The position numbers and the translations under genes were made by a program. From assembly GCA_040769165.1 (NCBI GenBank), contig JAXGLP010000001.1, positions 728,197 to 792,196 on the forward strand: a DNA stretch of 64,000 bases. Direction: 5' to 3'. Numbering within the stretch: the stretch's first letter is position 1; every line of letters begins with the position of its first letter. The stretch comes from Armatimonadota bacterium (lineage in GTDB: Bacteria > Armatimonadota > UBA5829 > DSUL01). The notes beneath the pieces are model-generated. The model was not told where the DNA came from, did not search any database, and saw only the letters and a list, made by a program, of their open reading frames with translations. Shown piece by piece: positions 9,630 through 49,100 of the stretch.

Positions 9630-10328
9630 ATGGCAGACACCGGACAGCCAACCACAAGAGTGGCCTACATTCTGGACAAATCAGGCTCGATGGCGAGTTG
9701 CAGGGAAGAGGCGATCAAGGGCACCAACGACTACATGGAGGCGCTCTGCGGCGAAAACCCGGACGCGCGCGTGACGGTGACCCTCTTCGACACCGAAGTC
9801 TATCAGGTCATTGACAGCGTGCTCGTGCGCGAGATCACCCATCTGACGGCCGACGCCTACATTCCTTCCGGGTGCACGGCGCTGTACGACGCTGTCGGCA
9901 GCAGCATCGCCGCGATCGGGGCCGAGGCTCAGGACGGCGACATCGTGCTCGTCTCCATCTTCACGGACGGCCTCGAGAACGCCAGCCATGAGTTCTCTCA
10001 CGAGACGATTCGCGATCTCATCAGCAAGCACGAGAAGAAGGGCTGGACTTTCGCGTATCTGGGCGCCAATCACGACGCGTGGGCCGCGGCTGAGTCCATC
10101 GGCATAGCGCGTGACAACACGGTCCGGTTCGCCGCCAGAGCGGCCGATGACGCCTTCGCGAAGGCCGGCCGCATTCAGTCGCGTTTTCTGCGAAGGCGAA
10201 GAGAAGCCCCGGAAGCCTCGCCGCAAACGGTGTTCGGGACAGGCGCCATCGAAGACGAAGCCGAGCCCGAGCCGCTGCCGGGCGACTGGAAGCAGCCCCG
10301 CGACAACCCTCGCAACAAGAAGCAGTAG
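9630..10328 (+). CDS. von Willebrand factor A (vWA) domain protein
   Basis: MIDAS-like ILDKSGSM, then TLFDT and a T/D-containing loop. ATG at 9630 is preceded by AGGAGG. Confidence 0.6.
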   Translation: MADTGQPTTRVAYILDKSGSMASCREEAIKGTNDYMEALCGENPDARVTVTLFDTEVYQVIDSVLVREITHLTADAYIPSGCTALYDAVGSSIAAIGAEAQDGDIVLVSIFTDGLENASHEFSHETIRDLISKHEKKGWTFAYLGANHDAWAAAESIGIARDNTVRFAARAADDAFAKAGRIQSRFLRRRREAPEASPQTVFGTGAIEDEAEPEPLPGDWKQPRDNPRNKKQ

Positions 10329-14573: not shown

Positions 14574-14893
14574 CCCCCTGCTTGCATAGCGCTGGCGGGA
14601 AGCACCATCCGGCGGATGATCGCCGCGTTTGAGGCGGCGGGCTTCGCCGCGGCGCTGCGGCTGCACGCCAACGCGGAGGCCGTGTGGCGCGCGACCCGGC
14701 CGGGCGGCATCAGCAACCTCGAAAAGAAGCTGAAGGCGCGGGGGAGGTAAACATCGGTGGCCGCTGCTCCGTTGTTTCGGGATTTCGGCCTCAGCATACC
14801 CGGCAACCCTGCGCAATCCGAAATCCCTATATGGTAGCATTTGTGTCGTACGGAGCATGAGTGGGGCGGTTTCTGCATTCAGGACCATCAAAT

Positions 14894-15070
14894 CCCGCTG
14901 AAACGCTGAATCCGGACTTCAGCGGCATCATCCCTTTCAGCGCCTCAGCGATTCCGCAAACCCCCGCGTCTCCGCCCGCCGTCCTGAATCGCGGAAGCAC
15001 GGAAGACAGAAGGAAACGCGGAATTCCGGATTCCGTGCCTCCGCCCGTCCCGCATCTCCGCGATTCCGGA
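14894..15070. repeat. 177-bp direct repeat, copy A (structured non-coding element)
   Basis: Identical to 15116..15292 except for 2 adjacent bases (15052-15053 vs 15274-15275). Contains nested inverted repeats: ccgctgaa/ttcagcgg, gaatcgcgga/tccgcgattc, gcacggaa/ttccgtgc and the palindrome cggaattccg. Confidence 0.9.
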
Positions 15071-15115
15071 AGATCCATATCCTGCCCGGCTTCCAGAATC
15101 GCGGAACGGATGAAA

Positions 15116-15292
15116 CCCGCTGAAACGCTGAATCCGGACTTCAGCGGCATCATCCCTTTCAGCGCCTCAGCGATTCCGCAAACCCCCGCGTCTCCGCCCG
15201 CCGTCCTGAATCGCGGAAGCACGGAAGACAGAAGGAAACGCGGAATTCCGGATTCCGTGCCTCCGCCCGTCCCGTGTCTCCGCGATTCCGGA
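15116..15292. repeat. 177-bp direct repeat, copy B
   Basis: Second copy, offset by 222 bp from copy A with a 45-bp spacer between them. The spacer holds a further partial 'gaatcgcggaa' motif. Confidence 0.9.
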
Positions 15293-15435
15293 GTTCCGCC
15301 GGGCAGCGTTCGCGTTGCCGCTACCAGCCGCCCGGCCGGACCTGCTGTATTTGTCTCCGGGAACTTCCGGAGCGCGGGAACGGGCCACTAGTCACGCCCT
15401 TTCGGAAGGCCCGAGCCCTGGCATCGGCTGACTTG

Positions 15436-15563
15436 CCCCCGGAGCGCACCAACCGGAACCCGTTGTTGTTGTTCCAGTTGTTCGGGTTGTTGTTGTTGCG
15501 GTTGGCGCAGCGGTTGTTGTTGTCGTTGTTGTTCCAGCTACCGCCGCGCAGAACCCGATAGCT
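15436..15563 (-). repeat. DGR template repeat (TR)
   Basis: Gap-free 128-bp match to 15713..15840. All 21 mismatches fall on A in this copy (minus-strand sense), within AAC-rich codons. The six-frame ORF 15321..15581 covering it encodes the Asn-rich ...GGSWNNNDNNNRCANRNNNNPNNWNNNNGFRLVRSGG. Confidence 0.9.
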
Positions 15564-15629
15564 CCTCCGACCCGTCCCCATTGAGAGAGCCGAGGCCCCC
15601 TCAATTCTGTTTTGTGAATTCGCGAGCGG

Positions 15630-15650
15630 GCAGGGGATTTATCCCCCTGC
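15630..15650 (-). promoter_or_regulatory. GC-rich hairpin (7-bp stem gcagggg/cccctgc, 7-nt loop) between VR and TR
   Basis: Inverted repeat read directly from the sequence, about 60 nt 3' of the target-gene stop. Could be a terminator or a DGR-type target-recognition hairpin. It has no U-tract. Confidence 0.4.
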
Positions 15651-15708
15651 ACCCCCTGCTACCGGAGAAAACGGTAAAAGGGTAAAACGGCAAAGCGTAA
15701 CCACGGAC

Positions 15709-16776
15709 TCAGCCCCCGGAGCGCACCAACCGGAACCCGACGCTGTCGTACCAGTAGTTCGGGCTGAAGAAGTTGCGGTCGGCGCAGCGGTAGTAGTAGT
15801 CGTCGAGGCCCCAGCCACCGCCGCGCAGAACCCGATAGCTGCCCGTGTAATCAAATGGACTTGTGCTCCCGGGATAAGAAACATACCAGTCCGCAACCCA
15901 CTCCCACACGTTACCAGCCATGTCCTGAAGACCATACGGACTCGCGCCCGAAGGATAACTCCCCACAGGAGCCGTCTGATACCTCTGGTAACCACCACCC
16001 GCGGAGTTGTGGTCATACCAGTTGTTGCACTTCTCATCGTCCCACTCGTTGCCCCACGGATACACGTTCGGATAACTCCCCGTCCAACGAGCCGCTTTCT
16101 CCCACTGAGCCTCCGTCGGCAAATGACCACCCGCCCACGCACAGTACGCCTCAGCCTCGTAATACGACACGCCGACAACCGGGTGAGACTGCGTCTGTGT
16201 GAATGTCTGCCCGGTGTACCAGGTCTGCTCCGCAGCCCAGTAGCGCGGCTCAGTGCGGCTGTTCGAAACCTTCCAACTCCACCCCGCGCTCGACCAGTAC
16301 GCAGGGTTGCTGTAACCGCCAGCCTCTATGAACCGGCGATACTCACCCCGCGTTACCTCATACTTCGCGATCCAGTAGCCCGAGAGATACACCGAGTGCT
16401 GGGGAAGCTCGTCGTCCCACGAATACGGCTCGCTGCCGTTGTTGCCCATCAGAAACGAACCCGCGGGGATGTAGACCATCTCGGTCGCCGCGGGGCCAAC
16501 GTAGTGCTCCACAGCGCCGGTCACCGTCAGCACGCTGCCGTCCCAGTCGCCAGTCACCACCAGGAAGTCCGACGGCGCCGCGGTGGTCCCGACGACCGTG
16601 ATCTCGCCGTTGCCGTCGCTCAGCTTCAGGGGACTCTCAGAGACGACACGACCCGCGACCTTGATGGGGTTTGGGGGCGTAGGGGAATACTGCAGGTCCG
16701 AGACGCGGACCACATACGCGCCCTGAACAGGCAGTCCGAGCACAAGCAACACACACGCACACAGCAACTTCTTCAT
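15709..16776 (-). CDS. Secreted FGE-sulfatase (SUMF1) / C-type-lectin-fold protein; DGR variable (target) protein
   Basis: Signal peptide MKKLLCACVLLVLGLPVQG, with GGAGG upstream of the ATG at 16776. FGE-sulfatase-like body (YIPAGSFLMGNN, HSVYLSGYWIAKYEVT, NVWEWVADW, RVLRGGGW...GFRLVRSGG). The VR occupies the last ~43 codons. Confidence 0.85.
   Translation of the reverse strand: MKKLLCACVLLVLGLPVQGAYVVRVSDLQYSPTPPNPIKVAGRVVSESPLKLSDGNGEITVVGTTAAPSDFLVVTGDWDGSVLTVTGAVEHYVGPAATEMVYIPAGSFLMGNNGSEPYSWDDELPQHSVYLSGYWIAKYEVTRGEYRRFIEAGGYSNPAYWSSAGWSWKVSNSRTEPRYWAAEQTWYTGQTFTQTQSHPVVGVSYYEAEAYCAWAGGHLPTEAQWEKAARWTGSYPNVYPWGNEWDDEKCNNWYDHNSAGGGYQRYQTAPVGSYPSGASPYGLQDMAGNVWEWVADWYVSYPGSTSPFDYTGSYRVLRGGGWGLDDYYYRCADRNFFSPNYWYDSVGFRLVRSGG
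15713..15840 (-). repeat. DGR variable repeat (VR) inside the 3' end of CDS 15709..16776
   Basis: Counterpart of the TR. Encodes GGGWGLDDYYYRCADRNFFSPNYWYDSVGFRLVRSGG. The last 26 nt (GGGTTCCGGTTGGTGCGCTCCGGGGG) contain no A and are identical to the TR (IMH-like). Confidence 0.9.
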
Positions 16777-16859
16777 TCGTAGTTCCTCCCTTTGCGGCTC
16801 CGCACCACAACGCTGAAACGGTGCGGACGGCTTAAGTATTGCGCATGGCCCGGCTGGTG

Positions 16860-17477
16860 TCAAGCTGAATCGCTGAACGTCTGCGCCCCCGCCGGCACGA
16901 GGCCGCTGCTGGGACTGACGCTCGTGTTGGACGGAGGGGCGGAGGCCACGGTGATCTCGCCAGCCTGATTCCAGCCGTCTCCATGCCCCGCGCGGTCGCC
17001 CACGTAGAGCCACTCCTTGAGCACCTTACCCCCCACGAGCGGCTTCAGCGTCAAGCCCACCCTCACCGTCAGCCCCGCGCCGGCGCCTGTCACCGCCGTG
17101 TCAGCACAGTGCACGGTACAGCGCGAGTTCTCGATGGTGTTCGCCGAACCCGGAGCGCAGCCGCCCAGCCATGCGCTGTTGGCGTCGTCTCGCAGCCAGA
17201 GCTTGTTCGCCGTCCGGTCGTGCCGCAGGAAGATACCGTTGTGGCCCACAAGCGCCGTGTTCAGCAGTATGCGGCAGTCGGTGATGTCGGCAAAGCCGTC
17301 GCCGTCGCTGAAGGACGCTGTGAAGGTTTGCTTCACACCGATCACAAGGCTGCCGCTCGATGGCGTGATTGTGCCGGTGACCGGCTCGCCTGCCGCATAG
17401 GCGGCAGGCGCAGATGCCGCAAGGGCGGCAACAAGCGCGCACACAAACAGCATAGAACGGATAACCGAACGGTTCAT
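16860..17477 (-). CDS. Secreted protein with one full copy plus a truncated second copy of the unrecognised 'LLLN/WLRNDAN' repeat domain
   Basis: Signal peptide MNRSVIRSMLFVCALVAALAASAPAAYA (ATG at 17477). Domain core ILLNTALVGHNGIFLRHDRTANKLWLRDDANSAWLGGCAPGSANTIENSRC matches the repeats in CDS 58425..61556 and 63081..>64000. Confidence 0.65.
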   Translation of the reverse strand: MNRSVIRSMLFVCALVAALAASAPAAYAAGEPVTGTITPSSGSLVIGVKQTFTASFSDGDGFADITDCRILLNTALVGHNGIFLRHDRTANKLWLRDDANSAWLGGCAPGSANTIENSRCTVHCADTAVTGAGAGLTVRVGLTLKPLVGGKVLKEWLYVGDRAGHGDGWNQAGEITVASAPPSNTSVSPSSGLVPAGAQTFSDSA

Positions 17478-17668
17478 CTCAATCCTGCTCCTTCCCGGCA
17501 CCGCCACTGGGCGGCCACATTCGGGCGTATGTCCGGCCGGGCGCCAATATACTACCAGACGCGCGGCGGGAGGGCAAGGGGAGCGGGGGTGAAGGGCTGG
17601 CAGGACCGCAGCAGTCTTCAACCACCCGTCCGTGTTATACTGCCCCGGCTTCTAAGGAGTGCTGCACC

Positions 17669-34878: not shown

Positions 34879-37800
34879 TTGGACAGTAGGACACCTGGAA
34901 CAGACAACCGAGGGGGGTTCGTGGGATTGAGACTGAGCTGGCGAACATCGGCCGGAAGCGTACTGCTTGCGCTCCTGGCGTTGCTGTGTACGGCTGGCGT
35001 TTCGCTGGCGCAGACTATCTCTCTCACCGACGGCAAGGTGACGCCGGCTTTCAGCGTGCGCGGGGCGGTTTACACCTACTCTGTAACCTACTCAGATGAG
35101 GACGCAACGCCGCCGATGTACGTGCGCGTCGTCATAGACGGCGAGACCTACACCATGCAGCGCTCTGCCGGCGCGCCCGACTATGCGGCGGGCGTTGTCT
35201 ACACCTACCAGCGCCGTCTCACCACCAGCGGCACACACCGCTATCATTTTGAAGCGCGCAATGCGTCGGGCTATGCGGTCTGGGATTTCCTCAGGTTCAG
35301 AGCCGGCGACGTGGAGGTGGAAGAGGAAGAAGACGAAGAGGGCAACGTCATCAGTTCCGTCGCCACAATCACCATCGCCGGCGAGGGGCCGTACCCGGAG
35401 TGTTACTCTGAGATAACCTGGGTCGGTGGCGACCGTGAGGGCATGGTGGACGCGGTCAACGCATCCGGGGATACGCTGACCATCGAGATTGAAGGCCCGT
35501 TTGAACCTGCGGCGCGGGGGGGTGACACGTTCGAACTCCCTTACTCGCGCAAATGCAGGTCGGCCTTTACCGTTGTCGGCGACTTCAGGGATCCCCTGGT
35601 CAACGACGCCCCGTTCCTGTCTGACCCGGTCGTCTCTCCGCGATGGAACTCGGATGGGTCGCAGGCGCACTGGACCTTCAAAATCACCTACAGCGACATC
35701 GAAGGAAACGGTCCGTCCTTCGTTCAGCTGTTCCTTGGCAGGGCGACGCTGATGGCGGCTAAGTCCGTGAGCGCAACCGAAACCGGCGCCGTCAGTCTGG
35801 CCTCCGCGCTGGGAAACAATCGGCTTCTGAACGTTGTGGGAGTCTATGATGACCCGGCGGGCGAAGGCGTCAACTACTATACGGGCGGCAGTTACAATCC
35901 GGAGACCGCGGTCGTCACGCTCGGCACGCCCCTGCCTGAGCCGAAGAGCGTGTACGTCACCTATCACGCCACGCCGATGACCTGGCAGGCGTACGATCTC
36001 ATCAAGGCCGATCCGCTCGCCTCAGGCTACACCGCCGGGGTGGAGTACGTCGTTCCCGCCCCGATTCCTCTCACCGGCTATAACACGCGGGCGCCGGGCC
36101 AGCCGCCTCATCTGTATTATTACTCTTTTGAGGCGGGTGACGGGCTTTACGACGACCGTAGGACTGGCTATCCGCTGTCGGTTGTGCCTGCACCGGCGAA
36201 GCAGCTTTTCGCGGCCGTTTCGGAGGTTCTCGGAACGCCAGGGGCTGAAGCGCCGTACCCGATGGTGTTCAACGGTCTCGGTGCCGGCTGGACTGAAACG
36301 ACGACCGGCCCGATATCCCGGATTGTCATGTCGGCCGCGTACGGGCCGCCGGAGGGCGCCGGGTTTGGTGTGCAGATCAGGACCATCTCAGCGTCGAACG
36401 AGGTCACCCCGGTTACGGACGCGAAAACGGATGACGCCCTGGGCCAGGTCACGCTGACAAGTGCGCCGGCGGCGGGCGATACGGTAACAGGCAGCTACGT
36501 TTTTGCCGAGCCTCTGCAGATGGCGCAATACGCCTCGCCGCCCGTCCTGGAGGATGGCACGGTCACCCCCGAGATCGGCGACCGCTCGGAAGCGTTCACC
36601 TACTGGGTTACCTACAAAGATGGGGCAGGCAGAGCTCCGGAATCGGTCACTGTGGTCATAGACGGTGTCGCGCGGGAGATGGCCCCGGCCGGGTCAGGCG
36701 CCCCGGACTACGCAAGCGGAGTTGTCTACCGCTACAGCACCATGCTCGCGCCCGAGACGGAGCATCAGTATCATTTCGAAGCGGTCAGCGCGGGCGGATA
36801 TGCCGTCTACGACGCGCTGCCGCTGGAGATCGTGTCGCTGCAGTACGACTACGCCGAGGACGGGGTTACCACAATCGCCACGTCACTGGCCCAGAACTGG
36901 TGGGACGAGGAGTTCGAAGGCAGCGAGATCACCTGGGTGACCGGACTCCGCGCCGGCGTCAGCGACCCTGTGGAGGGCGTCCGTGTCATAGACTACGACA
37001 GTATTACGCCAGCCGATGACCCGACCACGATCACCGTCACCGGCGTGCTCAACCGCGATCCGGAGAAAGAGCCGTTTCCTGGCGACCTGCTGACGCTGAA
37101 CCGGTCACGAAGCAGTCTCTGGCCCATCGCGGCAACGGGTGATATCGCGGGACCGTATGTCAACGACTCTCCCACTCTCACGAACTCGCAGGCCAGCCCG
37201 AGCACCAGCGTGCCGCTTCCGAACTCGGGGTGGACCTTCCAGACCACATACAGCGACATAGACAACAACGCGCCGCAGTTCGTGTACGCCATTCTGGGCC
37301 AGGCTACCGCCCGCTCTGCGCAGCCGTGCGCCGCTTCCAGCGTCAGCCAGGTGACTGTGGTTCCGCCCGACCCGGGCATTCCCGGCGAGGCCGCGCCGAA
37401 ACTGCTGAATGTCGTGGGAGTCTGGGACAACCCGAACGGCAGCGGAACCAACTACTACTCGGGCGGATCGTTCGACCCGGCCACGGGCGTGGTGACGCTC
37501 GGCACGAGTCTCGCTGCAGCCTCCACGGTCTACGTGACGTATCACTGCACCCCCATCGTGTGGGCGCCGGATGGCTCCGGCACGGGCCGGATAGCCCTCT
37601 CGAAGCTCGATCCGGGCGACATTGATTTCAGGGACGGCGCCATATTCACGACTTCCGCGCCTGTCTATTTCGATGGACCCGCGACCGGCAATATCGCGAA
37701 AGATCCGCCGAGGCTCAACTACTACTCTTTCGCTGCTTCAGACGGCTTCACTCGTGCAAAATATGCGCCCAACGACGCGCGCCCGTCTCCGGGCGCGTAC

Positions 37801-40800
37801 GGCGTCGAGATGGACATGCTGGTGACCGGCGATCAGCAGACCTACCGGATGACGTTCAACGGCTTCCCGCTCAGTTCGCGGCCTGACCCTGTCTCGCCCG
37901 TCCTGCTCGGCCCGTTGGCCGCGTCGGCCGCGGATGGTGACCTGGCGCTCGTCAACACCATCGTTACGCTGACGCCTGAAGGCGGCATGCCGCAGGTGCT
38001 GCCTCAGGGCGACTTCGCTTCGCGCATGGAGTACGAGTTGGACTATGCGCTCGGGACCGTGCGGCTCGGCGCCGCTCCTGAGCCGGGGGCTCCCGCGGAC
38101 CTCCTCCAGGCGAGCTACTGGTTCGCGCGGGCTTTGCCGATGGTGCAGTACAACAACCCGCCCGTCCTCACGTCGGGCAGGTTGGCGCCGGAGGTCGGCT
38201 CGCAGTTTACGACCTACACATACACGGTGACTTACACCGATACGGACGGCCTGAACGGCACGGCTCCGTCCTACGTTCGCGTTGTCATTGACGGGACGAC
38301 CTATTCTATGTCGCGCGTTTCGTCGGGTGTACCGATCTACCGCAATGGCGTGGAGTACCGCTACCAGACAAAGCTGGCTCCCAATACCTCCCACCGGTAC
38401 TACTTCGAGGCGAGCGACGGCTACGGGTACGCGCTCTTCCATGCGCCGTCCATCCCTGTGTCTCAGATCTCGTTCGATGCCGCCGCTGGAACAACGCTGG
38501 TGTCTGCCACCGGGCAGAGCTGGAAAGCATCGGAACACAAGAACGGCACGGTCGCCTGGGTCACCGGCAAGCGGGCCGGCAAGTACGACACCATTCTCGA
38601 CAATGCCGCCTCGACGCTCACCGTCGGTGGGCTGCTGAACGCGGATGCCGCAGTGCAGCCCGTTGTTGGCGACCAGTTCAAGGTTACGAAGTCAGAAAGC
38701 AGCCTGACCGCCTTTACCGCTCCCGGAGCCATTGACGGTCCGTTCATCAACGACGCGCCGTACCTCACCGATGGCACCGTCGTTGCCGTCGGGGCCATCA
38801 AGCGCGGTGACCCTGTTTCCTACACCGTGTCGTATCACGACAGCGACAACGACGCCCCGGCGGACGGCTACCCGATGGCCTGGGTCGGCGGCACGAACTG
38901 GGAGTTCAACGGCGGTGTCACGTCGCGCCTTTACGGTGATGTCACGCTCATCACCGACGACAGCCAGGCGTGGACGCCCTCGCAGTTCAAGGATCAGCCG
39001 CTTACGTGGATTACGGGCAAGCGCGTTGGCATCACCGACACGATCCTCGACAACACGTCGAATATGCTGATCATCAGCGGCCGGCTCGACGCGAGCATCA
39101 CGGCCCGGCCGGAGGTCAGTGACCGCTTCAGCATCCTGCAGGCGACCGGAACCGCGTCGGCCATAGACTACCGGGCCGCGGCATTTGTGGATGACACCAA
39201 AGCGTTCGTGCCGGACGCGCTCGCTGGCGAGCGCATCCAGATGGTTACCGGGTCTGGCCTCGGAGCGGTCTTCGATGTCGCCGCAAACACGGCTGAGATG
39301 CTCGTGATATCTGGACGGCAGCTTCCCACATCGTCTGCTGATCCCGCTGTCGCGGCCACGGGCGTGGCGAGCGGCGATTCGTATTCGATCCACGACTTTC
39401 TCGTCGGCGCGATTACGCTGAACGTAAACGACGGCGGCCTGGTCTCGATGAAGTTCAACAACTCGCCGGGCTGGGTCACCGACCAGTTCGCCGGGCTTGT
39501 CATCCAGATGATGAGCGGTACGGCGGTCTGGAAGAAATATACCATCCTCAACAACACCGCCGACACGCTGTACTTCTCCCAGCAGGCGAGCGTCTTCGTC
39601 AACGACGGTGTGGCGACTGGCGACGTTGTGCGCATTGCCGGTCTCAAGATGGACAAGCAAAGCCCGGGTGAGAACGATTTCACCGTCGCGCCCGGAGTGT
39701 ACTACACGGTCACCATTCCGGGGCTTGGGCTCGGCGATCACACGGTCAAATGGATGGCCTCCAACAGCCCGCTGGTGCGCGGCGTCCGAACCACCTTCCA
39801 GGGCCGGTATCCTGCCGGGGCCTCCCTCCCCGGTCCGCTCGTGACCGGTGACATACCGCCCGGCAACACCGCCCCGCAGCTTAGAAACGCGGTTGCCTCG
39901 CCGGCGATCGGTCTCACGACCAGCAACTACCGCTTCTCGGTTGACTACCGGGACGCCGACGGCGACCCGCCGGGTCCGCACGACGGAGTGGTCGGATTCC
40001 TGCAGCTAGTGGTGGATGCCGAGATCAATGGCCAGATCGTTCGCCGGACATACCGCTCTTCGGTTGACCCGGTGAGCGGCGGCGCCTGGCCCGTCAACAT
40101 CTATCGCACGATTGACTCCACTGTCTTCAGCGGCTTCCTGCTCGATGCCAGCGTGGCGCAGCTTCCGCCGGGCACGCACAGGTTCCATTTCGAGGCGTCG
40201 GACGGCTGGTCCGTGGTTCGCTACCCGTCGAACGCCGCCGACGACCCGATGGTGGTTGTCAACAGCCGGCCAACGCTCACGATTCCCGCCGCTGGCGGGG
40301 TGAGTCCGGGCGAAGGAAACACCGGCACGACATTCCGCTTCCGCGTCATCTATGCGGACGGTGATAACCAGGCGCCCGCCTCCATCAGCCTCGTGCTGGC
40401 GAAGGGCGGCGTGCCTCAGGCGCCGCTGATCCTGTCGCAGGAGGTTCCGTCGGACGGGAACTACCTGGATGGCGCGGTCTACTACGTGGACACCACGCTG
40501 CCGGCGGGAACGTACACTTATTACTTCTCGGCGAGTGATGGGGTGGAGCTGTACCCGGTCGTGACGCAGTCCCAGCCCGGCCCGATAGTCCGCGGCGAGA
40601 ACAACGCTCCGGTCCTTCTTGAAGCAGCGGTGACTCCCGCTGTCTCACCGTTTGCCGGAAACGAGTTCAACTACACCGTCCGCTACAGGGACCAGGACAA
40701 CGATCCTCCGAACCACGTGAGCCTTACTGTCTATGCAGCGGACCAGACCACGGTTCTGGACACGCTGGCCATGGAGAAGGCTGATCCGGACGACACGGCT

Positions 40801-43062
40801 TACTCGAGCGCCGAGGGCGTTTTGTATGAGTATCCGGGCTACCACTTTGGCCAGAGCGGAACGTTCTTCTACCAGTTCAGCGCATCCGACGGCGTGGACG
40901 CCACCGGCGATGTTGAGATAATGACGGGTCCGTTTGTGAACACGCCGCCGGCGCTCGGCGAGCCCGAGGTCGACAAGATGAGCGGCCCGTCCGACGAGCT
41001 CTTCACATTTGGCGTCACCTACACCGATGCCGATGGCGTCGCGCCTTCGGCGGACGGGTATGTGCGGCTGGTTTTGACGACGGGCTCCACGGTCACGAAG
41101 GTGGATATGGTCCGGCAGGCCGAAGACGGTTGGGCTGGCGGAGTGCGGTATCTGACGCAGATACAACTCGCACCCGGCACCCACAGCTTCTACTTCGAGG
41201 CGAGCGACGGGCTTGACCCGGCCGCGAGCACCGAGACAGTCAGCGGACTCACCGTGATAGCCACGCCGGGCCTCAGAAACCCCACTGTTACGCCCGGCAC
41301 GGGCAAGTCAACGGATACGTATTCGTATTCGGTCACGCTGGCGAATCCGAGCGGAAGCGGCCCGGACGAGATTCTCGTCTTCATTGACGGGACCGGTGAT
41401 GATTCGGCCCACCTGATGACGAAGGTGAACCCCTCCGACATGAACTTTGCCGAGGGCGTCCGCTATATCTACACGACCCAGCTTGCCCCGTCCGCGAGCA
41501 TTCCGGGCGGCAAGCACACCTGGTTCGTCCGCGCCACAGTGGGCGGGCAGACGATCTACCCGCCGGGGCAGAGCCCGTCAACTCCGAGTATCGGGCCGCT
41601 GGTCAACAGTGCTCCGGCGCTGACCGAAGCGAGCGTCAACCCGACATTCGGGCGCCCGTCGGACACGCAGTTCACGTTTGTCGTGACCTACACGGATGCC
41701 GACAAAGTGGCGCCGGGGGCAGGCGGCTACGTTCGGGTGGTGGTTTCGGGGGTTGCCTACCCGATGACGGCCCAGGCCAGCCCCGACTGGAAGAAGCCGG
41801 TCGTGTACACGCTCGCGACGCCTCTGCCAGGCGGGCAGCATTCGTTCTACTTCGAGGCATCCGACGGTATCGAGACAACGCGTTTGCCGGCCGGAAGCGG
41901 TCAGTTCGACGGTCCTCGAGTCAGCGCGCGCCCATTGCTGACGGACGGAGCGGTTACCCCGGATACGGGAACCACGGCGACTCAATTCACTTACACCGTG
42001 AAGTACTCCGACCCCGAAGGCGACGCTCCGGCGGTGGACGGCGTTCAGGTGCTGATTGACGGCCAGCCGCACGTGATGACGCGCGCCGCGGGCGTGCCGA
42101 ACTATGTGACGGGCGTGACATACACCTATACGACCACGCTGGGGGCGGGTTCTCACAACTTCATGTTCCAGGCGACTGATGGAACAGACCTGATCACGAG
42201 TCCTTTGCAGAGCGGCAAGCCGACTGTGGACGCGGTGGGGCTTACCGTAAACGCCTCGCCGAACCCGGCAGCGCTCGGGAGCCAGATCACTGTTTCGGGT
42301 GAGGTGCTTCCGAAGCGCGCGGCGACGCTGAATGTGGTCCTCGACCGCCCGGCGGGAGCAAACGTGAACCGCACGGTTACGACGGATGCGTCCGGCGCCT
42401 ATTCGTTCACTTTCGTGACCGACGAGGTGGGGACGTGGGATGTGCGCGTAGCCGATCCGGGAACCAGCGCCAGCGCCTCGATCAGTCCGAAACTCACCGT
42501 CAACAAAGCCACCCTGCGCGTTCAGGGCGGGGTGGTGGATATGATATCGAGCCCGGTGTACTCGGTAACCGGGGATCCGTCGGCCGTGTTTGGAAGCGCC
42601 GCCGCGCTGGGGCTTAACATCGTGAAGTGGGTTCCGGCGGCGGGAGTCTACAGCTACTACGGGGCCGCTCTCGACTTCCCTGTGCTGGGCGCGACGTCGG
42701 GCTTCTGGATCAAACCCGCGGCCACCACCACGCTGGAGCTGACGGGCGCCCTGCACGACCAGACGCAGCCGATAGCAGCGCGTGTCTCGGCGGGTTGGAA
42801 TCAGATAGGCTCCGGCTTTGTGACGCCGGTGAACTGGGCGGATGTCAGGGTGAAGTACGGCACGCAGGATCCGGTGAGCCTGTCCGAAGCTCAGTCGCGC
42901 GGATGGATCCGCGACTACGCCTGGGGGTATGATCCGATGGCGAGGCGCTACTTCCTGGTGCGCGGCTCGGGAGGCGAGGCGAGCACTCTCGATCCTTTCA
43001 GGGGCTACTGGGTGCGGTCGTTCGTTGACTGCGACCTGCTGATCCAGCCGCCCGCAAAGTAG
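34879..43062 (+). CDS. Giant secreted repeat protein (2727 aa): about 10 beta-sandwich '...Y.V.Y.D.DG..P...V.IDG....M......Y..GV.Y.Y...L..G.H.Y.FEA.DG' modules, other repeat classes, and the shared C-terminal module
   Basis: Signal-like LLALLALLCTAGVSLAQ. 8 tandem modules of about 95 aa at 39868-42190. Shared module at 42530-43059 (SAGWNQIGSGF...FRGYWVRSF). The start may be the GTG at 34921. Confidence 0.75.
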   Translation: MDSRTPGTDNRGGFVGLRLSWRTSAGSVLLALLALLCTAGVSLAQTISLTDGKVTPAFSVRGAVYTYSVTYSDEDATPPMYVRVVIDGETYTMQRSAGAPDYAAGVVYTYQRRLTTSGTHRYHFEARNASGYAVWDFLRFRAGDVEVEEEEDEEGNVISSVATITIAGEGPYPECYSEITWVGGDREGMVDAVNASGDTLTIEIEGPFEPAARGGDTFELPYSRKCRSAFTVVGDFRDPLVNDAPFLSDPVVSPRWNSDGSQAHWTFKITYSDIEGNGPSFVQLFLGRATLMAAKSVSATETGAVSLASALGNNRLLNVVGVYDDPAGEGVNYYTGGSYNPETAVVTLGTPLPEPKSVYVTYHATPMTWQAYDLIKADPLASGYTAGVEYVVPAPIPLTGYNTRAPGQPPHLYYYSFEAGDGLYDDRRTGYPLSVVPAPAKQLFAAVSEVLGTPGAEAPYPMVFNGLGAGWTETTTGPISRIVMSAAYGPPEGAGFGVQIRTISASNEVTPVTDAKTDDALGQVTLTSAPAAGDTVTGSYVFAEPLQMAQYASPPVLEDGTVTPEIGDRSEAFTYWVTYKDGAGRAPESVTVVIDGVAREMAPAGSGAPDYASGVVYRYSTMLAPETEHQYHFEAVSAGGYAVYDALPLEIVSLQYDYAEDGVTTIATSLAQNWWDEEFEGSEITWVTGLRAGVSDPVEGVRVIDYDSITPADDPTTITVTGVLNRDPEKEPFPGDLLTLNRSRSSLWPIAATGDIAGPYVNDSPTLTNSQASPSTSVPLPNSGWTFQTTYSDIDNNAPQFVYAILGQATARSAQPCAASSVSQVTVVPPDPGIPGEAAPKLLNVVGVWDNPNGSGTNYYSGGSFDPATGVVTLGTSLAAASTVYVTYHCTPIVWAPDGSGTGRIALSKLDPGDIDFRDGAIFTTSAPVYFDGPATGNIAKDPPRLNYYSFAASDGFTRAKYAPNDARPSPGAYGVEMDMLVTGDQQTYRMTFNGFPLSSRPDPVSPVLLGPLAASAADGDLALVNTIVTLTPEGGMPQVLPQGDFASRMEYELDYALGTVRLGAAPEPGAPADLLQASYWFARALPMVQYNNPPVLTSGRLAPEVGSQFTTYTYTVTYTDTDGLNGTAPSYVRVVIDGTTYSMSRVSSGVPIYRNGVEYRYQTKLAPNTSHRYYFEASDGYGYALFHAPSIPVSQISFDAAAGTTLVSATGQSWKASEHKNGTVAWVTGKRAGKYDTILDNAASTLTVGGLLNADAAVQPVVGDQFKVTKSESSLTAFTAPGAIDGPFINDAPYLTDGTVVAVGAIKRGDPVSYTVSYHDSDNDAPADGYPMAWVGGTNWEFNGGVTSRLYGDVTLITDDSQAWTPSQFKDQPLTWITGKRVGITDTILDNTSNMLIISGRLDASITARPEVSDRFSILQATGTASAIDYRAAAFVDDTKAFVPDALAGERIQMVTGSGLGAVFDVAANTAEMLVISGRQLPTSSADPAVAATGVASGDSYSIHDFLVGAITLNVNDGGLVSMKFNNSPGWVTDQFAGLVIQMMSGTAVWKKYTILNNTADTLYFSQQASVFVNDGVATGDVVRIAGLKMDKQSPGENDFTVAPGVYYTVTIPGLGLGDHTVKWMASNSPLVRGVRTTFQGRYPAGASLPGPLVTGDIPPGNTAPQLRNAVASPAIGLTTSNYRFSVDYRDADGDPPGPHDGVVGFLQLVVDAEINGQIVRRTYRSSVDPVSGGAWPVNIYRTIDSTVFSGFLLDASVAQLPPGTHRFHFEASDGWSVVRYPSNAADDPMVVVNSRPTLTIPAAGGVSPGEGNTGTTFRFRVIYADGDNQAPASISLVLAKGGVPQAPLILSQEVPSDGNYLDGAVYYVDTTLPAGTYTYYFSASDGVELYPVVTQSQPGPIVRGENNAPVLLEAAVTPAVSPFAGNEFNYTVRYRDQDNDPPNHVSLTVYAADQTTVLDTLAMEKADPDDTAYSSAEGVLYEYPGYHFGQSGTFFYQFSASDGVDATGDVEIMTGPFVNTPPALGEPEVDKMSGPSDELFTFGVTYTDADGVAPSADGYVRLVLTTGSTVTKVDMVRQAEDGWAGGVRYLTQIQLAPGTHSFYFEASDGLDPAASTETVSGLTVIATPGLRNPTVTPGTGKSTDTYSYSVTLANPSGSGPDEILVFIDGTGDDSAHLMTKVNPSDMNFAEGVRYIYTTQLAPSASIPGGKHTWFVRATVGGQTIYPPGQSPSTPSIGPLVNSAPALTEASVNPTFGRPSDTQFTFVVTYTDADKVAPGAGGYVRVVVSGVAYPMTAQASPDWKKPVVYTLATPLPGGQHSFYFEASDGIETTRLPAGSGQFDGPRVSARPLLTDGAVTPDTGTTATQFTYTVKYSDPEGDAPAVDGVQVLIDGQPHVMTRAAGVPNYVTGVTYTYTTTLGAGSHNFMFQATDGTDLITSPLQSGKPTVDAVGLTVNASPNPAALGSQITVSGEVLPKRAATLNVVLDRPAGANVNRTVTTDASGAYSFTFVTDEVGTWDVRVADPGTSASASISPKLTVNKATLRVQGGVVDMISSPVYSVTGDPSAVFGSAAALGLNIVKWVPAAGVYSYYGAALDFPVLGATSGFWIKPAATTTLELTGALHDQTQPIAARVSAGWNQIGSGFVTPVNWADVRVKYGTQDPVSLSEAQSRGWIRDYAWGYDPMARRYFLVRGSGGEASTLDPFRGYWVRSFVDCDLLIQPPAK

Positions 43063-43196
43063 TAACAGAACACGGTTGGTCTGCCCGCGGTTCGCAGAGA
43101 GCCGTGGGCAGGCAGTCTTCAGGTTGCCGGCCGGGCCGGTTACGAGTCTGGAGTTACGTAAGATTGAGCGATATTCATAAGAAGAACAGAAGAGCC

Positions 43197-46100
43197 ATGA
43201 ACCTGCTGAGCCGACTGAGGGGGCAACTGGTTGCCGCGTCTGGTCTGAGAGCCGCGCTGCCGGGTCTCGCCGCCGCGCTGGCGTGCGCCGTTCTGGCAGG
43301 GCCGGTCTCGGCTCAGTCGCTGTCTGGTCCGGGCGTCACGCCGGGTAAGGCGACCACAAACTCAATCTACAACCACACCGTGACCTGGACGTGGACCCCC
43401 TCCAACAACCATTTCCCGTGGTATGCCAATGTGGTCACCCTGGGTCCCGAAGAGGTGACGCGGGTCTATTCCGACGCCGCGCGCACGCAGCTTGTCACCG
43501 ACCAGGTGGACATTAAGATACCCGTGACATGGTTCGGCGTGGACCGGTTCTACGAGATCTGGGCCGCAAACGGCGAGAACTACCCACCGACCGCTGACCG
43601 GGTCAATGCGGGTTACCGCCCGGGCGGTAACCGCGTCCGCGTGACCCTTCCGGTGGACGAAGAAGGCAATACGATCAACCCTGTCACCGCGACCGGCGAA
43701 CTGACAGCACGGGTCCGCCTTGGCGCCTTCCGCGCGGTTGAGCGCAATGTCCCGGTTGACCCCGACGGCGACGGGCAGACGTTCTTCACCCGCGGGGCGC
43801 CGATTGTCGCGGTGGGCGGCGTGTTCGACGAAAACGGCGTGGATTACTGGGAGACCCAGGACCAGTACGGCAACCCCACAGGCGGTCTGGGCTCTGTCGT
43901 CAGCGGCGCGGGCTATCCATTCCGCTGCGGCCTCAGGCTGCCATCGCCTCTTCCCAGCCGCGTCAAGACCGTGACCCTCATCTACTATGTCGGGCCGGTG
44001 ACGCTCGGCAACATCGGTGGCGGCTTCGATGATGACGACGGAAACTACGTGCCGCTGGCGGCCGCATGGGACGGCGACAAGCCGCCGCAGGACGGCTCGA
44101 GGTTTCTCCTCTCCGCGTCGAGGGGACTCAATCTGCTCAACGACCCGCGCGCTGTGCCTGGAGTAAACCGTGTGACAGGGCCGGGGGCGACCCAGCACTG
44201 GGCCACCCGTTTCATCAAGCGCGACAGCAACGGCCGTCCCGAGCGGATAACCAGCAATACCGATGACGACGTCATACGTTACGGCGCGTATATGAAGGTG
44301 GAAGGGAGCGACACTGAGCCGGCGCAGCCGGGCGACCTGGATACGGAGTCGTTCCCGTCAACACCGCCGCTCGTGGGCGCCAATGCGGCCGTCATCAGCC
44401 CCAATCTGTTCGGGCCTTACAACTACCCAAGCGTAATCCAGAAGGTGGGTCCCACCGGCTCGACTATCATCAAGGTCTCGCCTCCTGGCGGCGGATATCT
44501 CGTGGATGTTCGCGGAGTGTGGGCCGATTCGGACGCGGACGATGACGGCGTGGCCGATCTGACCGGTCCGAACTACTACAGCGGCGGCACGTTCGATACC
44601 GCGACGAACATCATTACGCTCGGCACGGCGCTTCCGTCCTCGGTTCAGAATGTCTGGGTGGACTACGCGTACTCGAGCAGGTACTACCGCTTCGGTGATG
44701 CAGGCGAGGAAGATGACACTTCCATCTGGGGCCATGACGCGCTCGGGGCGTACCCGGCGGTTGCGTTCGTCAACCGCGCCAAGGTGTACAACCCCCTCGT
44801 GGCGGAGCAGTATATCCGCGATTACTACTGGCGCATAGACCCCGTCTCGGGCGACCTGGTTGTGAACCCTTCCGCAAGGAAGATGATCAAGATCACCGAC
44901 GACGCCGCGTTCATAGATGCCAGCGGCACGACACCGGCGGACGAACGGCTCTTCACGCCCTTCAAGCAGAACGCTCCGAACGATGGCAACAGCTCTCACT
45001 CGTTCAACTTCAGGGTCCGCTACTACAACGACCAGGGCCTTGGAGCCAGCAACTGGCTGCCGAGAGCCGATGGGCGCCCGGGCGCATCTGGCGTGATGGT
45101 GTACGTGAAGTACGATGGCGAGAACGACTTCCGGCCCTACGGCATGGCCCAGGAGAACCCGGCGGTCAACAACGTTGCGCGCGATGACAACAGCTATCCG
45201 GGCGACTACGGACTGGGATATCTCCTCAGGTTTGAACCGAATTTCGGGCTGAGCGGTATTGTCGTGGCTGGCAAGAAGAACTACCCCACGCCGACGTGGA
45301 CGCTGCCCAACAACTACATCTCGATGCCCGTGGGCCGACATCAGTACTTCTTCGCCACAAGCGATGACTCGCTGAAAGACTGGGACGGCGCCCTCTGGCG
45401 GAATCCGCAGGTGAAGGTCAGGGCCGAGAATCCCCTGAACCCCTACGATGTTCCCTGGTGGACCCAGCAGAACCCGCCCGCCTACCGTCCCGGCGAGCTG
45501 CCCTTCGGCTTTGGTGACGGCTTCATAGACAGTAATATGCGCGACACCTACAACTTCGCGGATATCACAACCTACCAGCCGGGACTGCTGAATACGGGCT
45601 ACGAGTACGAAGCGACCGAGCATCCGGTCGTGCACGCGCTGCTGTCGGGCATTCCGTTCGGGCAGGATGCCCTGGGACATGTCGGTTCGGGGTTCTTCCT
45701 CGGAACGCTCTCCCCGTATGTGCCGGCCGTGAATCCGCGGCAGCCGCCCGTGCCTACCGGAATGTCTGCCGGGTTCAACCTTGCGGGTGCCTGGCAGACA
45801 ACGTCCATGGGCACTGCGTCCACCTTATTCACCTTCAAGGTGATCTGGCAGTCGTTCGACCCCGACACAAAGGTGGGCCGCCCGCCGAAGTACATCAAGG
45901 TTTTCGTCAACAACAAGTCCACCGCCAAGCCGACGCTGGACACGGACAATACGACGGTTGACCCCGCCGCGAAGTACACCGGCTACACGATGGTGCCGGT
46001 CAAGGCCAACCCGACGGCCGCCGACTACGCGGCCGGCCTCACCTATCAGTATCAGACCACGCTGCCGCCGGGCCCGCATACGTACTACTTCGAGGCCGAT

Positions 46101-49100
46101 GCCGGGTTCGGCGCCGTGCGCTTCCCGGTGCGTCCCGACGGACGCCGGCTGGACGCGCCGCCTGAGGACGGCGGCCACGGCTGGTGGGAAGATCCATATG
46201 TGCCGGGCGAGCGCGACTTTGCGGACAACAACGACTACTGCCCGGGGCCGTACGTCAACAACAAGCCGCAGCTCCTGAGCCCGAGCGTCACGCCGTCGAG
46301 CGGGCCTTACGGGACCGACTTCGTTTACAGGGTCATCTACCAGGATCCCGACGGCCAGCGGCCGGTGCAGACCGACATCATCATCGAGCTGGCTCCGGGC
46401 CAGACCGTGCGCGCCACCATGCAGCGCGTGGAGCCCGATCCGGCGAACGTGGACTACGCCGAGGGCGAGGCCTATATCTTCCGGGCGTCCTCCCTCCAGG
46501 GCTCGGTGTTCGCGCCCGGAATCAGGCGCTATCGCTTCGAGTTCCGCGACGACTGGGGCCACCCGCGCATAGATACCGATACCATCCCGGGTGAGCTCGT
46601 GAGTGCGCCGGCGGCGGTCAACAATGTCACCGCATGGTATGAGGGGCCGACTGTTTCCGCTCAGGCGCGGCCGCTGCTGACCGCCGGGGCGGTGTCGTCT
46701 TCGGACGGCTCGTCGAACCCGGCGACTCTGTGGACCTACCAGGTCACGTACACGCACGGCAACAACATCGCGCCGAGCTTCGTCAACGTCTATACAGGCG
46801 CTCAGCGCGATGCCGCCGACCCGCTGAATGCGCGCACGCTGGAACGCGCCAGGCCGTCGTCGGCCAGGAGCCTGCAAGTCGCCGTGACTCCGGTTACGTC
46901 GGTCACCGGCGTCTGGACCAACGCCGCGGGAGGTGGCGTCAACTACTACACCGGCGGCAGCTTCAACCCGAGCACCGGCGTTATCACGCTGGGCGCTGCT
47001 CTGCCCGAGCCGAGCCGCGACGTCTGGGTGACCTACTCGGCTAACCCCATCGTGTGGGATGACGGACACGGGATGGCCAGGCGCGACGCCGCCGATATCA
47101 TCTACACCGACGGCGCGGTCTATCAGTATCAGACCACGTTGCCCGGTCCGCAGCGAACGGGCGACCTGCCGATTACGTACTACTTCACGTATCAGGCGTC
47201 TGACGGGCGGCTGATGACCCATTACGATGCTGCTTCGTCGGCGTCGGCGTTCGCGCTGACCCGCCAGCCCGCCGGAGAGGGCGCCACCGATACGGGTGAG
47301 ATTCTGAGCCACGCGACGAGCCAGAACTACACGGTGTATCAAGCCGAGCACTTCCCGATCGTGGGGCCGCTGCCGACGACAGCGACGAGCGATCCGGGCG
47401 TGCTCCTGCAGCCTATCATCTACAAGAACGATCTGCAGCTTATGCCCGGTTTCACCGGAACGCTGGACTCTGCTTATGTTGAGGACAACGTCAGGGTGGA
47501 CGCCAACGGCCTGAGCGTGACCGTTGACCCGTCCGTGGTTCACATGGTGCTCGGCGTATATACCGATGCTCTCATGATGGGCACGGATTACTACGCCGGC
47601 GGCGCCGGGGGCAAGTACAACAGCGAGTCGGGCGTCATCGCTCTGGGCACGCAGCTTCCCGCGGGAGTCCGCCGCGTGTATCTGAGCTACTCCAACCGGG
47701 GCGAGTATCGCGTGGACTTCGTGAATGGCAAGGTGATCTTCACCGAGCCGAACGATGCCAGTGACGTGCTCGAGATGGAGTACTGGTGGGCCGCCAAAGG
47801 CCCCGCCAGCGTCGGCCTGAACAACCCGCCGTCGCTGTCGCTGGGGCGCTGGACGGCGCTGCCGCTGGACACCGTCCCCAACGACGGGGTGGACGGGTCG
47901 AGCACGACGGAATTCACGTTCTCGGTCGTGTATCGCGATGTGGATGGACAGGGCGGGCAGGCGCCATCGTTCGTGAACATCATCATTGATGGCGTTGTGC
48001 ACCCGATGACGCTCAGCACGAGCAATCCGGTCTACTCGACGGGCGCGACATTCAGCTACACGACGAAGCTGTCGAGCGGATCGCATCTGTACTACTTCGA
48101 GGCGTCGGACGGCACGGGCTTCGCGGCTTACGATGCTGACGGGTCGAAGAGTTCGGCCGCCGAGATCACGGGCCTGGTGCCGATCGTCGGGCCGTTTGTC
48201 AACGACCGGCCCGTTCTGTCGAGCGGCGCTGTCTCACCCAACCCCGTGGACGGCATCGCGGCAGGAAGCTCGGCGACCTACGCTGTGACGTACACCGATG
48301 CTGACGGCAACCCGCCGAACGTGGGCTACCCGAAGGTCTGGATAGACAATCCGACCGAGGTGGACTACTCGGGCAAGGTAACGGCTGTCAACGGGTCCAC
48401 GCTCACCATCGGCGGAGCGGACTGGGCGCCCGGAGTACTGACAGGCAAGCTGCTTCAGGTGACGACCGGACTGGTGATTGACCCCGAGACGCAGACGCTT
48501 GGCAGCCCGAGCGCGGCTTCCGGCAGAATCTATCAGGTGCTGGACAGTGGGCGGAACACGCTGGTTGTGACGCCCACCGAACTGCCGGGCGAGACGATTA
48601 TCCTGGGAGACACGATCTCGGTCACCGGGCTGGTGATGAGCAAGCAGAACCCGCAGCAGACGGACTACCGGCAGCCGGTTCCGTACCAACTCGTCGTTCC
48701 GTCCATGCCTGTGGGCACTCACGAATACCACTTCAGCGTTGTCTCTGCGCCGACAGTGGAGGTTGTGACGCTCAGGGCCGGGAGCGCCGAGTTCGCCGGG
48801 CCGCTCGTCACAAGCACGCCGCCAGACGGTAACGTGGCCCCGGTGCTCGCGGCCGGCTCGGTCACGCCGGACAGAGGCGTCTCGAACACCGCCTTCACGT
48901 TCGAAGTTGCCTATTCGGATGCCGATGACGATCCGCCGGGCGCGCACGACGGCGTGTTCGGATATGTCAGGCTCGTGTTCAACGACGGCAGCTATCCGGC
49001 GCAGAGAATGCAGCCCGTGGGCGCGGTCAACTCGTGGATCAGCCCCGTCGTTTACCGGGTTGTTCTCGACGACCTTCCGGCGGGAACTCATCTGTTCCAC

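Follow-up and report, generated by a model that had tools for sequence, protein, structure and literature searches.

The 64,000-nucleotide (nt) stretch of Armatimonadota bacterium DNA analysed here (the window; assembly GCA_040769165.1, contig JAXGLP010000001.1, positions 728,197 to 792,196) carries the target gene, variable repeat (VR) and template repeat (TR) of a diversity-generating retroelement (DGR) and no gene for its reverse transcriptase (RT). The target gene (15709..16776, ATG at 16776) encodes a secreted variable protein of 355 amino acids with the FGE-sulfatase/C-type-lectin (CLec) fold, and its last 42 codons constitute the VR (15713..15840). A spacer of 149 nt (15564..15712) separates the VR from the intergenic TR (15436..15563), here called TR_B, which encodes SYRVLRGGSWNNNDNNNRCANRNNNNPNNWNNNNGFRLVRSGG and is followed by a structured TR 3' domain of 154 nt (15282..15435), all of these features being on the minus strand. 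An adjacent RT was looked for and is absent, and the locus is a DGR in mechanism and not a complete DGR.

TR_B and the VR align without gaps over 128 nt, or over 129 nt at 83.7% identity if 15435/15712 are added. They differ at 21 of the 128 positions, and on the minus (coding) strand the TR base is A at each of the 21; the VR has T at 11 of them, G at nine and C at one. The TR contains 38 A, of which 21 are changed in the VR, compared to none of its 90 non-A positions, and the hypergeometric probability that all 21 mismatches should fall on A is 4.7e-14. The original prediction, made from the letters of the sequence, had described a gapless 128-bp alignment with 21 differences, all at template adenines of the coding strand; the recomputed alignment agrees exactly, a tabulation by template base gives 21 of 21, and no mismatch at a non-adenine template site emerged on realignment. 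The changes had also been placed in the first two positions of AAC codons: the mismatches are indeed confined to codon positions 1 or 2, and the codon is AAC for 20 of them and AGC for the other, a trivial departure. The translations given for the TR and VR peptides were reproduced exactly, as was the A-free 3' end common to both copies. This end, the GC-rich last 26 nt (GGGTTCCGGTTGGTGCGCTCCGGGGG), resembles an initiation of mutagenic homing (IMH) sequence and is identical in the TR (15436-15461) and the VR (15713..15738, minus strand); the homology extends one base past it and ends at the stop codon. No IMH/IMH* difference between the TR and VR ends was seen. A TR/VR scan, which recovered the pair of Bordetella phage BPP-1 as a positive control, found one pair in the window, and an adenine-agnostic scan of all 64 kb found no second VR for TR_B. 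An apparent match to Mtd at 1245-2318, considered as a second VR, was rejected since the gene encodes a BPD_transp_2 permease, and an open reading frame (ORF) of 86 codons that overlaps the TR (15321-15581) is a by-product of the TR and not a gene.

The target protein consists of a putative signal peptide, an N-terminal beta-rich domain and an FGE-sulfatase/C-type-lectin-fold domain. The signal peptide (MKKLLCACVLLVLGLPVQG, with the predicted cut before AY; 16720..16776, minus strand) had been claimed beforehand, and by inspection the N-terminus has the appearance of one, with a basic n-region, a hydrophobic core and small residues before the cut. The FGE-sulfatase (CLec-like) domain (15721..16488, minus strand; residues 98-353 of the 356-residue translation that starts at 16779) matches Pfam PF03781 at 2.7e-62. 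Among sequences in the PDB, the protein matches EgtB, OvsA and FGE, and its C-terminal part matches the Treponema denticola variable protein TvpA (2y3c) at 2.4e-10. An AlphaFold model of the target (pLDDT 77.5, pTM 0.80) has a confidently modelled N-terminal beta-rich domain and its lowest confidence across the VR, and a Foldseek search with this model returned the same fold, with matches to EgtB and FGE. The assignment of a TvpA-like FGE-sulfatase/CLec fold to the target, already part of the original prediction, is thus shared by Pfam, the PDB sequence matches and Foldseek. Homologues of the target number more than 7,500, and the few with a named source are from Armatimonadota metagenome-assembled genomes (MAGs). 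Alignments of the homologues show a conserved scaffold and hypervariability at the residues that AAC codons template, and protein clusters with invariant N-termini show hypervariable C-terminal tips. The family is mosaic, visibly in the middle part of the protein. Near-identical targets (P0247/P0248 and P0002/P0241) end either in GFRLVRSGG, the TR_B type, or in GFRIAR, the type of the RT-linked TR_A described below; the alternative ends and the mosaic family suggest, from sequence comparison, that VR ends may have been swapped between templates or that paralogues have recombined. A promoter-like site upstream of the target gene (TTGACA, 17 nt, AATACT; 16835..16863, minus strand) is a consensus match alone.

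Contigs of the same locus and of related loci, numbered with the prefix L, bring the number of VR alleles to six (the window, L017, L028, L030, L032 and the NCBI MAG contig L016), and the differences among the six are almost confined to positions that are A in the TR. L017 represents the same locus at 97% nucleotide identity, and its VR differs from that of the window at 23 positions, all of them A in the TR and none of them among the 90 non-A positions; compared to the TR, the L017 VR is changed at 17 positions, every one of them an A. L006, which was assembled independently and is joined to the same E1-dehydrogenase gene, carries an identical TR. In L028, L030 and L032 the TR is 99% identical (a 1-nt difference) and adjoins a distinct VR allele in each; L016, with its own allele, and L031 also have a 99%-identical TR. 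These contigs, L028 to L032, were found by a metagenome scan with a TR-specific pattern, and their assemblies come from other projects as well. Target, VR, 149-nt spacer and TR are contiguous in three of them that are independent (L028, L030, L032), and the layout without an RT occurs in at least two genomic contexts, one exemplified by the window and L032 and the other by L030 and L016. Searches with the full TR pattern, A being replaced by N, found no match in GTDB genomes or JGI metagenomes, and a protein-based genome scan returned only three remote targets, which have neither a TR nor an RT. A VR that is hypervariable at A positions, accompanied by an invariant TR, is the population pattern to be expected of an active or recently active DGR. 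An invariant VR would have spoken against the predicted DGR signature; in the metagenome contigs the VR varies at A-templated sites and the TR does not, and this variability, the adenine-only asymmetry and the FGE/CLec-fold tip together support the signature.

Short-read contigs of the same population break on both sides of the cassette, at ~15336-15570 and at or near 17586. All five contigs that reach the cassette from the side of the E1-dehydrogenase gene (L006-L010) end between ~15336 and 15570, a break explained by the TR/VR repeat, as would be expected of a repeat with a heterogeneous partner. On the side of the GH106 gene, three of four contigs (L002, L004, L005) end at 17552-17586; this second break lies upstream of a gene for a secreted protein of 205 amino acids (16860-17477).

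No RT or Avd was found in the window by any of the approaches used. A six-frame regular-expression search of the window for the RT motifs YxDD and I/LGxxxSQ found a single YVDD, inside a subtilase; tblastn and phmmer searches of the window with Brt, Avd and Mtd found no RT or Avd; and Pfam searches of all large ORFs in the window found no RT and identified ordinary chromosomal genes, including those for a sugar kinase, an ABC transporter, transketolase, the E1 dehydrogenase, GH106, PolA, S1, CoaE and UvrB. The RT of the same lineage (see below) matched the window only by read-through into a repeat of the repetitive extragenic palindromic (REP) type, and the bAvd, PIN, orf65 and PDDEXK_3 proteins and the RTs of two complete relatives (L036, L039) found nothing there. 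Any RT must therefore lie more than 15 kb from the cassette on one side or more than 48 kb on the other. Avd or bAvd is encoded by approximately 74% of DGRs and is not universal. Because neither RT nor Avd is present in the window, the TR/VR pair is interpreted as a cassette that depends on an RT encoded elsewhere. Two adjacent giant ORFs in the window (34879-43062 and 43104-50663, both on the plus strand), of 2,727 and 2,519 amino acids, have no Pfam match at E <= 1e-3.

The noncoding parts of the cassette are highly conserved. The spacer has 98% identity in L028, L030 and L032 (146 of the 149 positions aligned), and the spacer, TR and 3' domain together have 98-99% identity between the window and these three contigs, compared to approximately 89% for the non-VR coding sequence between the window and L030 or L032. 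On the minus strand, the spacer begins with a T-rich run of TTTTAC-type repeats (15655-15700) directly after the VR stop codon, continues with a GC-rich hairpin (GCAGGGGG-ATAAA-TCCCCTGC, 15630-15650) that has an 8-bp stem and a 5-nt loop and is located 62 nt from the VR, outside the phage consensus, and ends with a second hairpin (15581-15604) directly upstream of the TR. The first two of these elements are also found behind the VR of both canonical relatives, L036 and L039, where TTTTAC repeats keep their position before the GC-rich hairpin (~3440-3470 in L036; ~7430-7460 in L039) and the hairpin is of the form CAGGGG...CCCCTG, with stem bases changed; the post-VR hairpin is thus conserved in the lineage.

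Homology of the window with all other TR-bearing contigs extends from 15282 to ~15600 and so includes the entire 3' domain. This domain has a homologous counterpart 3' of the RT-linked TRs of L033, L036 and L039, and the RT probably uses this part of the DGR RNA for recognition or priming. RNAalifold predicted 48 base pairs in this domain, 16 of them with compensatory changes; 96% of the cells are paired, compared to 33-47% when the partners are slid by 1-3 columns, and none of 500 shuffles matched the observed values. The independent lineages behind these values number only about four, and the alignment used to evaluate the structure is also the one that produced it, which makes the covariation supportive rather than conclusive of a structured RNA homologous to those of the RT-linked TRs. 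An Rfam search gave only sub-threshold chance matches.

The ENA metagenome series that yielded the window-type contigs also contains a candidate for the missing enzyme. L029 encodes a DGR-type RT that matches RVT_1 at 1e-24, has 39% sequence identity to Brt (3e-60) and contains the motifs IGNLTSQ and YVDD, and members of the same cluster (P0121, 99% identical) are encoded on L029, the 51-kb contig L033, L034 and L035. L035 is from sample ERZ17993498, where its coverage is 6.0 and that of the window-type contig L006 is 5.7. The gene order of L033 is RT, PIN, orf65, TR_A with its 3' domain, PDDEXK_3 and an fn3 protein, and neither a bAvd nor a target was found within 10 kb of this RT. The RTs of L036 (P0131) and L039 (P0129), which are 77-78% identical to the candidate, belong to complete and contiguous DGRs, in the order target, bAvd, RT, TR in L036 and target, bAvd, GIY-YIG, RT, TR in L039. 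The tetranucleotide composition of L033 is compatible with that of the window. The two contigs have no nucleotide homology besides the TR with its 3' domain and the repeat, and the proposal that the FGGY kinase gene of L033 is the first gene of the window, which would place the RT just to the left of the window, was rejected on that ground.

The template of the candidate RT locus is different from that of the cassette. TR_A encodes ...PNNNWNNNGFRLARK and TR_B encodes ...PNNWNNNNGFRLVRSGG, and the window VR has no non-A mismatches to TR_B compared to four to TR_A; therefore the local copy is the template. The two longer RT contigs (L033, L034) carry TR_A, and L035, which ends inside its TR after 69 nt, is an exact match to TR_A over these and has two mismatches to TR_B. 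The fourth RT contig, L029 (MTKZ01000907.1, 4462-4780), is 99.7% identical to L030 on one side of its TR and 97.4% identical to L033 on the other, with the switch point inside a stretch of approximately 75 nt that is common to TR_A and TR_B; judged by this pattern, L029 probably arose by chimeric assembly of short reads or by natural recombination.

Small ORFs accompany the related loci. In L033, a PIN-domain ORF (1348-2006) overlaps the RT stop codon and an ORF of 65 codons lies between the RT and TR_A, and L039 has a similar pair of small ORFs after its RT; the pair may be a toxin-antitoxin system or a DGR accessory, both being candidate roles. Small PDDEXK_3 (PF13366) ORFs flanked by REP-like repeats are found in relatives directly downstream of targets or of an RT-linked TR (9730-9936 and 11166-11600 in L018; L019; 2432-2836 in L033), and the window has no PDDEXK_3 ORF.

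Only two tandem units of 180 nt lie between the TR module and the convergent E1-dehydrogenase gene (14891-15070 and 15113-15292). They are 98% identical, each is internally palindromic, and they resemble REP sequences or MITEs (miniature inverted-repeat transposable elements). They abut the TR module on its 3' side, opposite to the position of the RT in this clade, which is 5' of the TR. A 38-nt core (15139-15176 and 14917-14954) is dispersed in related genomes, often adjoining DGR parts: there are six copies, in both orientations, in L039; in L018-L020 and L025 it follows DGR targets immediately, and in L016 it lies a little upstream of the target; and the RT ORFs of L029 and L033 have it fused to their 3' ends. 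A role for the 180-nt repeat as a DGR-specific functional element was rejected, as the core is dispersed and is also present between nuo genes in L039, and the units are probably not part of the mechanism.

The reading preferred here, and considered likely, is that the window contains a genuine DGR TR-VR cassette without an enzyme of its own, which is served in trans by an RT encoded elsewhere. The RT would be encoded in the same genome and would use TR_B in trans, and the cassette may be currently active in this strain. In the proposed mechanism, TR_B (15436-15563) would be transcribed together with the conserved 3' domain of ~150 nt; a DGR RT from elsewhere in the genome, for which the P0121 locus is the candidate, would copy the TR_B RNA and misincorporate opposite adenines; the resulting cDNA would replace the VR (15713-15840) at the 3' end of the target gene, guided by the A-free GC-rich end and the downstream hairpin; and the ligand-binding tip of the protein would vary from cell to cell through randomisation of about 19 codons templated by AAC or AGC. 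A more specific version, held only tentatively and with slightly less than even confidence, is that the cassette is a non-autonomous satellite module, consisting of the 3' end of the target, the spacer, a distinct template of its own and an RNA domain recognised by the RT, and no enzyme, which would be served in trans by a master RT that is encoded at another locus and has TR_A as its own template. Such a module may spread or be exchanged as a unit, given that it occurs in at least two genomic contexts.

Several observations weigh against dependence on an RT in trans. The 3' domain of the window lacks 19 nt (GGACGCCCGGGGAGTGCCC, at ~15377) that form one small helix; these 19 nt are present in L006, from the same population, and in L028, L029 and L030, and the helix is kept in every other copy, so that the deletion could impair the window copy, or could be a strain variant or an assembly error. 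A promoter for the TR was searched for and not found. Three of the VR alleles have indels of 3-6 nt compared to the TR, which are not the product of adenine mutagenesis alone, and the single-base difference in the TR (AGC/AGT) is mirrored in the VR of L028 and not in those of L030 and L032; with mosaic targets, the VR differences between contigs could be due in part to paralogue recombination. The RT locus is on separate contigs, for which co-occurrence, coverage and composition are not proof of a shared genome, and several related Armatimonadota strains, which composition does not separate, coexist in the samples.

The alternative that survives best, although it is considered unlikely, is that the cassette is a relic that has lost its own Avd and RT and is now frozen, the VR differences having arisen before the loss or by paralogue recombination. 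It would explain the absence of RT and Avd in cis, and deletion of bAvd and RT from the gene order of L036 and L039 (target, bAvd, RT, TR) would generate exactly the layout of the window; the 19-nt deletion in the 3' domain, the mosaic target family and the REP/MITE-like repeats that adjoin the module, as they do in the degenerate loci of Thiohalocapsa (PMC10907252), are also in its favour. A frozen cassette is difficult to reconcile, however, with the absence of any TR/VR difference at the 90 non-A positions when the carriers of the cassette have diverged by ~10% in non-VR coding sequence, with the existence of six VR alleles and of the RT-less layout in at least two genomic contexts, with the 98-99% identity at which the noncoding spacer, TR and 3' domain are held, and with the presence of a closely related RT in the same sample.

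Still less probable is that TR_B is a passive duplicate, the VR being rewritten from an RT-adjacent copy of the same template and the target-adjacent TR playing no part. L029, in which RT, PIN and orf65 are joined to a TR with a 3' half and 3' flank of the TR_B type, could be such a copy, but the switch from 99.7% identity with L030 to 97.4% identity with L033 within its TR is characteristic of chimeric assemblies or of recombinants. The other RT contigs argue for a different template at the RT locus (TR_A in L033 and L034, and 69 nt exact to TR_A in L035), and conservation of the 3' domain and spacer at 98-99% identity is not what one would expect of a passive duplicate. The explanation that there is no DGR at all, only an ordinary or chance duplicate of a gene's 3' end or an assembly artefact, has nothing in its favour except the absence of an RT from the window and is extremely improbable in view of 21 of 21 mismatches on one base of one copy (P ~5e-14), a template designed around AAC codons, the same layout in independent assemblies from other projects, and population variation restricted to A positions.

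To our knowledge, DGRs are the only prokaryotic system of targeted protein hypervariation. If the cassette is indeed served in trans, the unit of diversification is separable from the enzyme, and one RT may serve several different templates. Catalogues of DGRs have been built by anchoring on the RT gene. The survey of Roux et al. required that one repeat lie no more than 1 kb from the RT and that the repeat pair lie within 20 kb (PMC8144416), and because a repeat is required within 1 kb of the RT, pipelines anchored in this way could not find such a cassette; current surveys would then undercount both targets and templates, as RT-anchored finders would miss these cassettes systematically. For the host, a secreted lectin-fold family is marked as a fast-evolving binding surface. 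Should the cassette prove to be a relic, or simply to lie at a distance from its RT, it would be an ordinary DGR with a target of the commonest class.

Compared to known systems, the window is similar to chromosomal DGRs with FGE/CLec-fold targets (T. denticola TvpA, PDB 2y3c; the CLec classes of PMC5758913) in its adenine-only asymmetry, its AAC-rich template, a VR that forms the very C-terminus of a secreted protein with the FGE-sulfatase fold, a GFR motif at the end of this protein, and an A-free GC-rich 3' end. In the survey of Wu et al. 2018 (PMC5758913), the TR adjoins the RT, as TR-RT or RT-TR, in every architecture and only targets are remote; unlike those DGRs, the window has a TR that adjoins the target, and no RT lies within 15 kb of the cassette on one side or within 48 kb of it on the other. 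The canonical DGRs of L036 and L039, from uncultured relatives and of the same RT clade, have a homologous TR and TR 3' domain, the same kind of target and the same motifs after the VR, but consist of contiguous target, bAvd, RT and TR, whereas the window has only the target, the 149-nt spacer, the TR and the 3' domain.

Bordetella phage BPP-1 (mtd, avd, TR, brt) likewise has a TR/VR pair of 128-134 nt at the 3' end of a gene for a CLec-fold receptor-binding protein, and its Brt is the enzyme to which the candidate RT is 39% identical; unlike the window, BPP-1 is phage-borne and Avd-dependent, and its parts all fit into 3 kb. Priming in BPP-1 reportedly requires a structured RNA segment located 3' of the TR (Handa et al. 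2018). The consensus for post-VR hairpins of phages is a stem of 7-10 bp with a 4-nt GRNA loop, 4-34 bp from the VR (PMC3240598), and the window hairpin differs from that of BPP-1 in its 5-nt loop and its position 62 nt downstream of the VR.

Thiohalocapsa PB-PSB1 (Dore et al. 2024, PMC10907252) provides the closest precedent, having degenerate loci without an RT, accompanied by MITE-like arrays, and a complete DGR elsewhere in its genome. The VRs of those RT-less loci are still diversified in nature, which was explained by activity in trans, and they match the TR of the complete locus, so that a master TR and RT suffice (PMC10907252). The window resembles Thiohalocapsa in having an RT-less locus with MITE-like tandem repeats beside the remaining parts; it differs in that these repeats are 3' of the TR module, whereas the RT in this clade is expected on the other side, and in that, of the local TR_B and the RT-linked TR_A, the window VR matches the former only. 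Because the VR fits TR_B alone, the RT would have to use the satellite template. Neither DGRs nor FGE-fold targets are new in themselves, and Thiohalocapsa is a precedent for RT-less loci; the new part is an enzyme-less cassette that has its own template.

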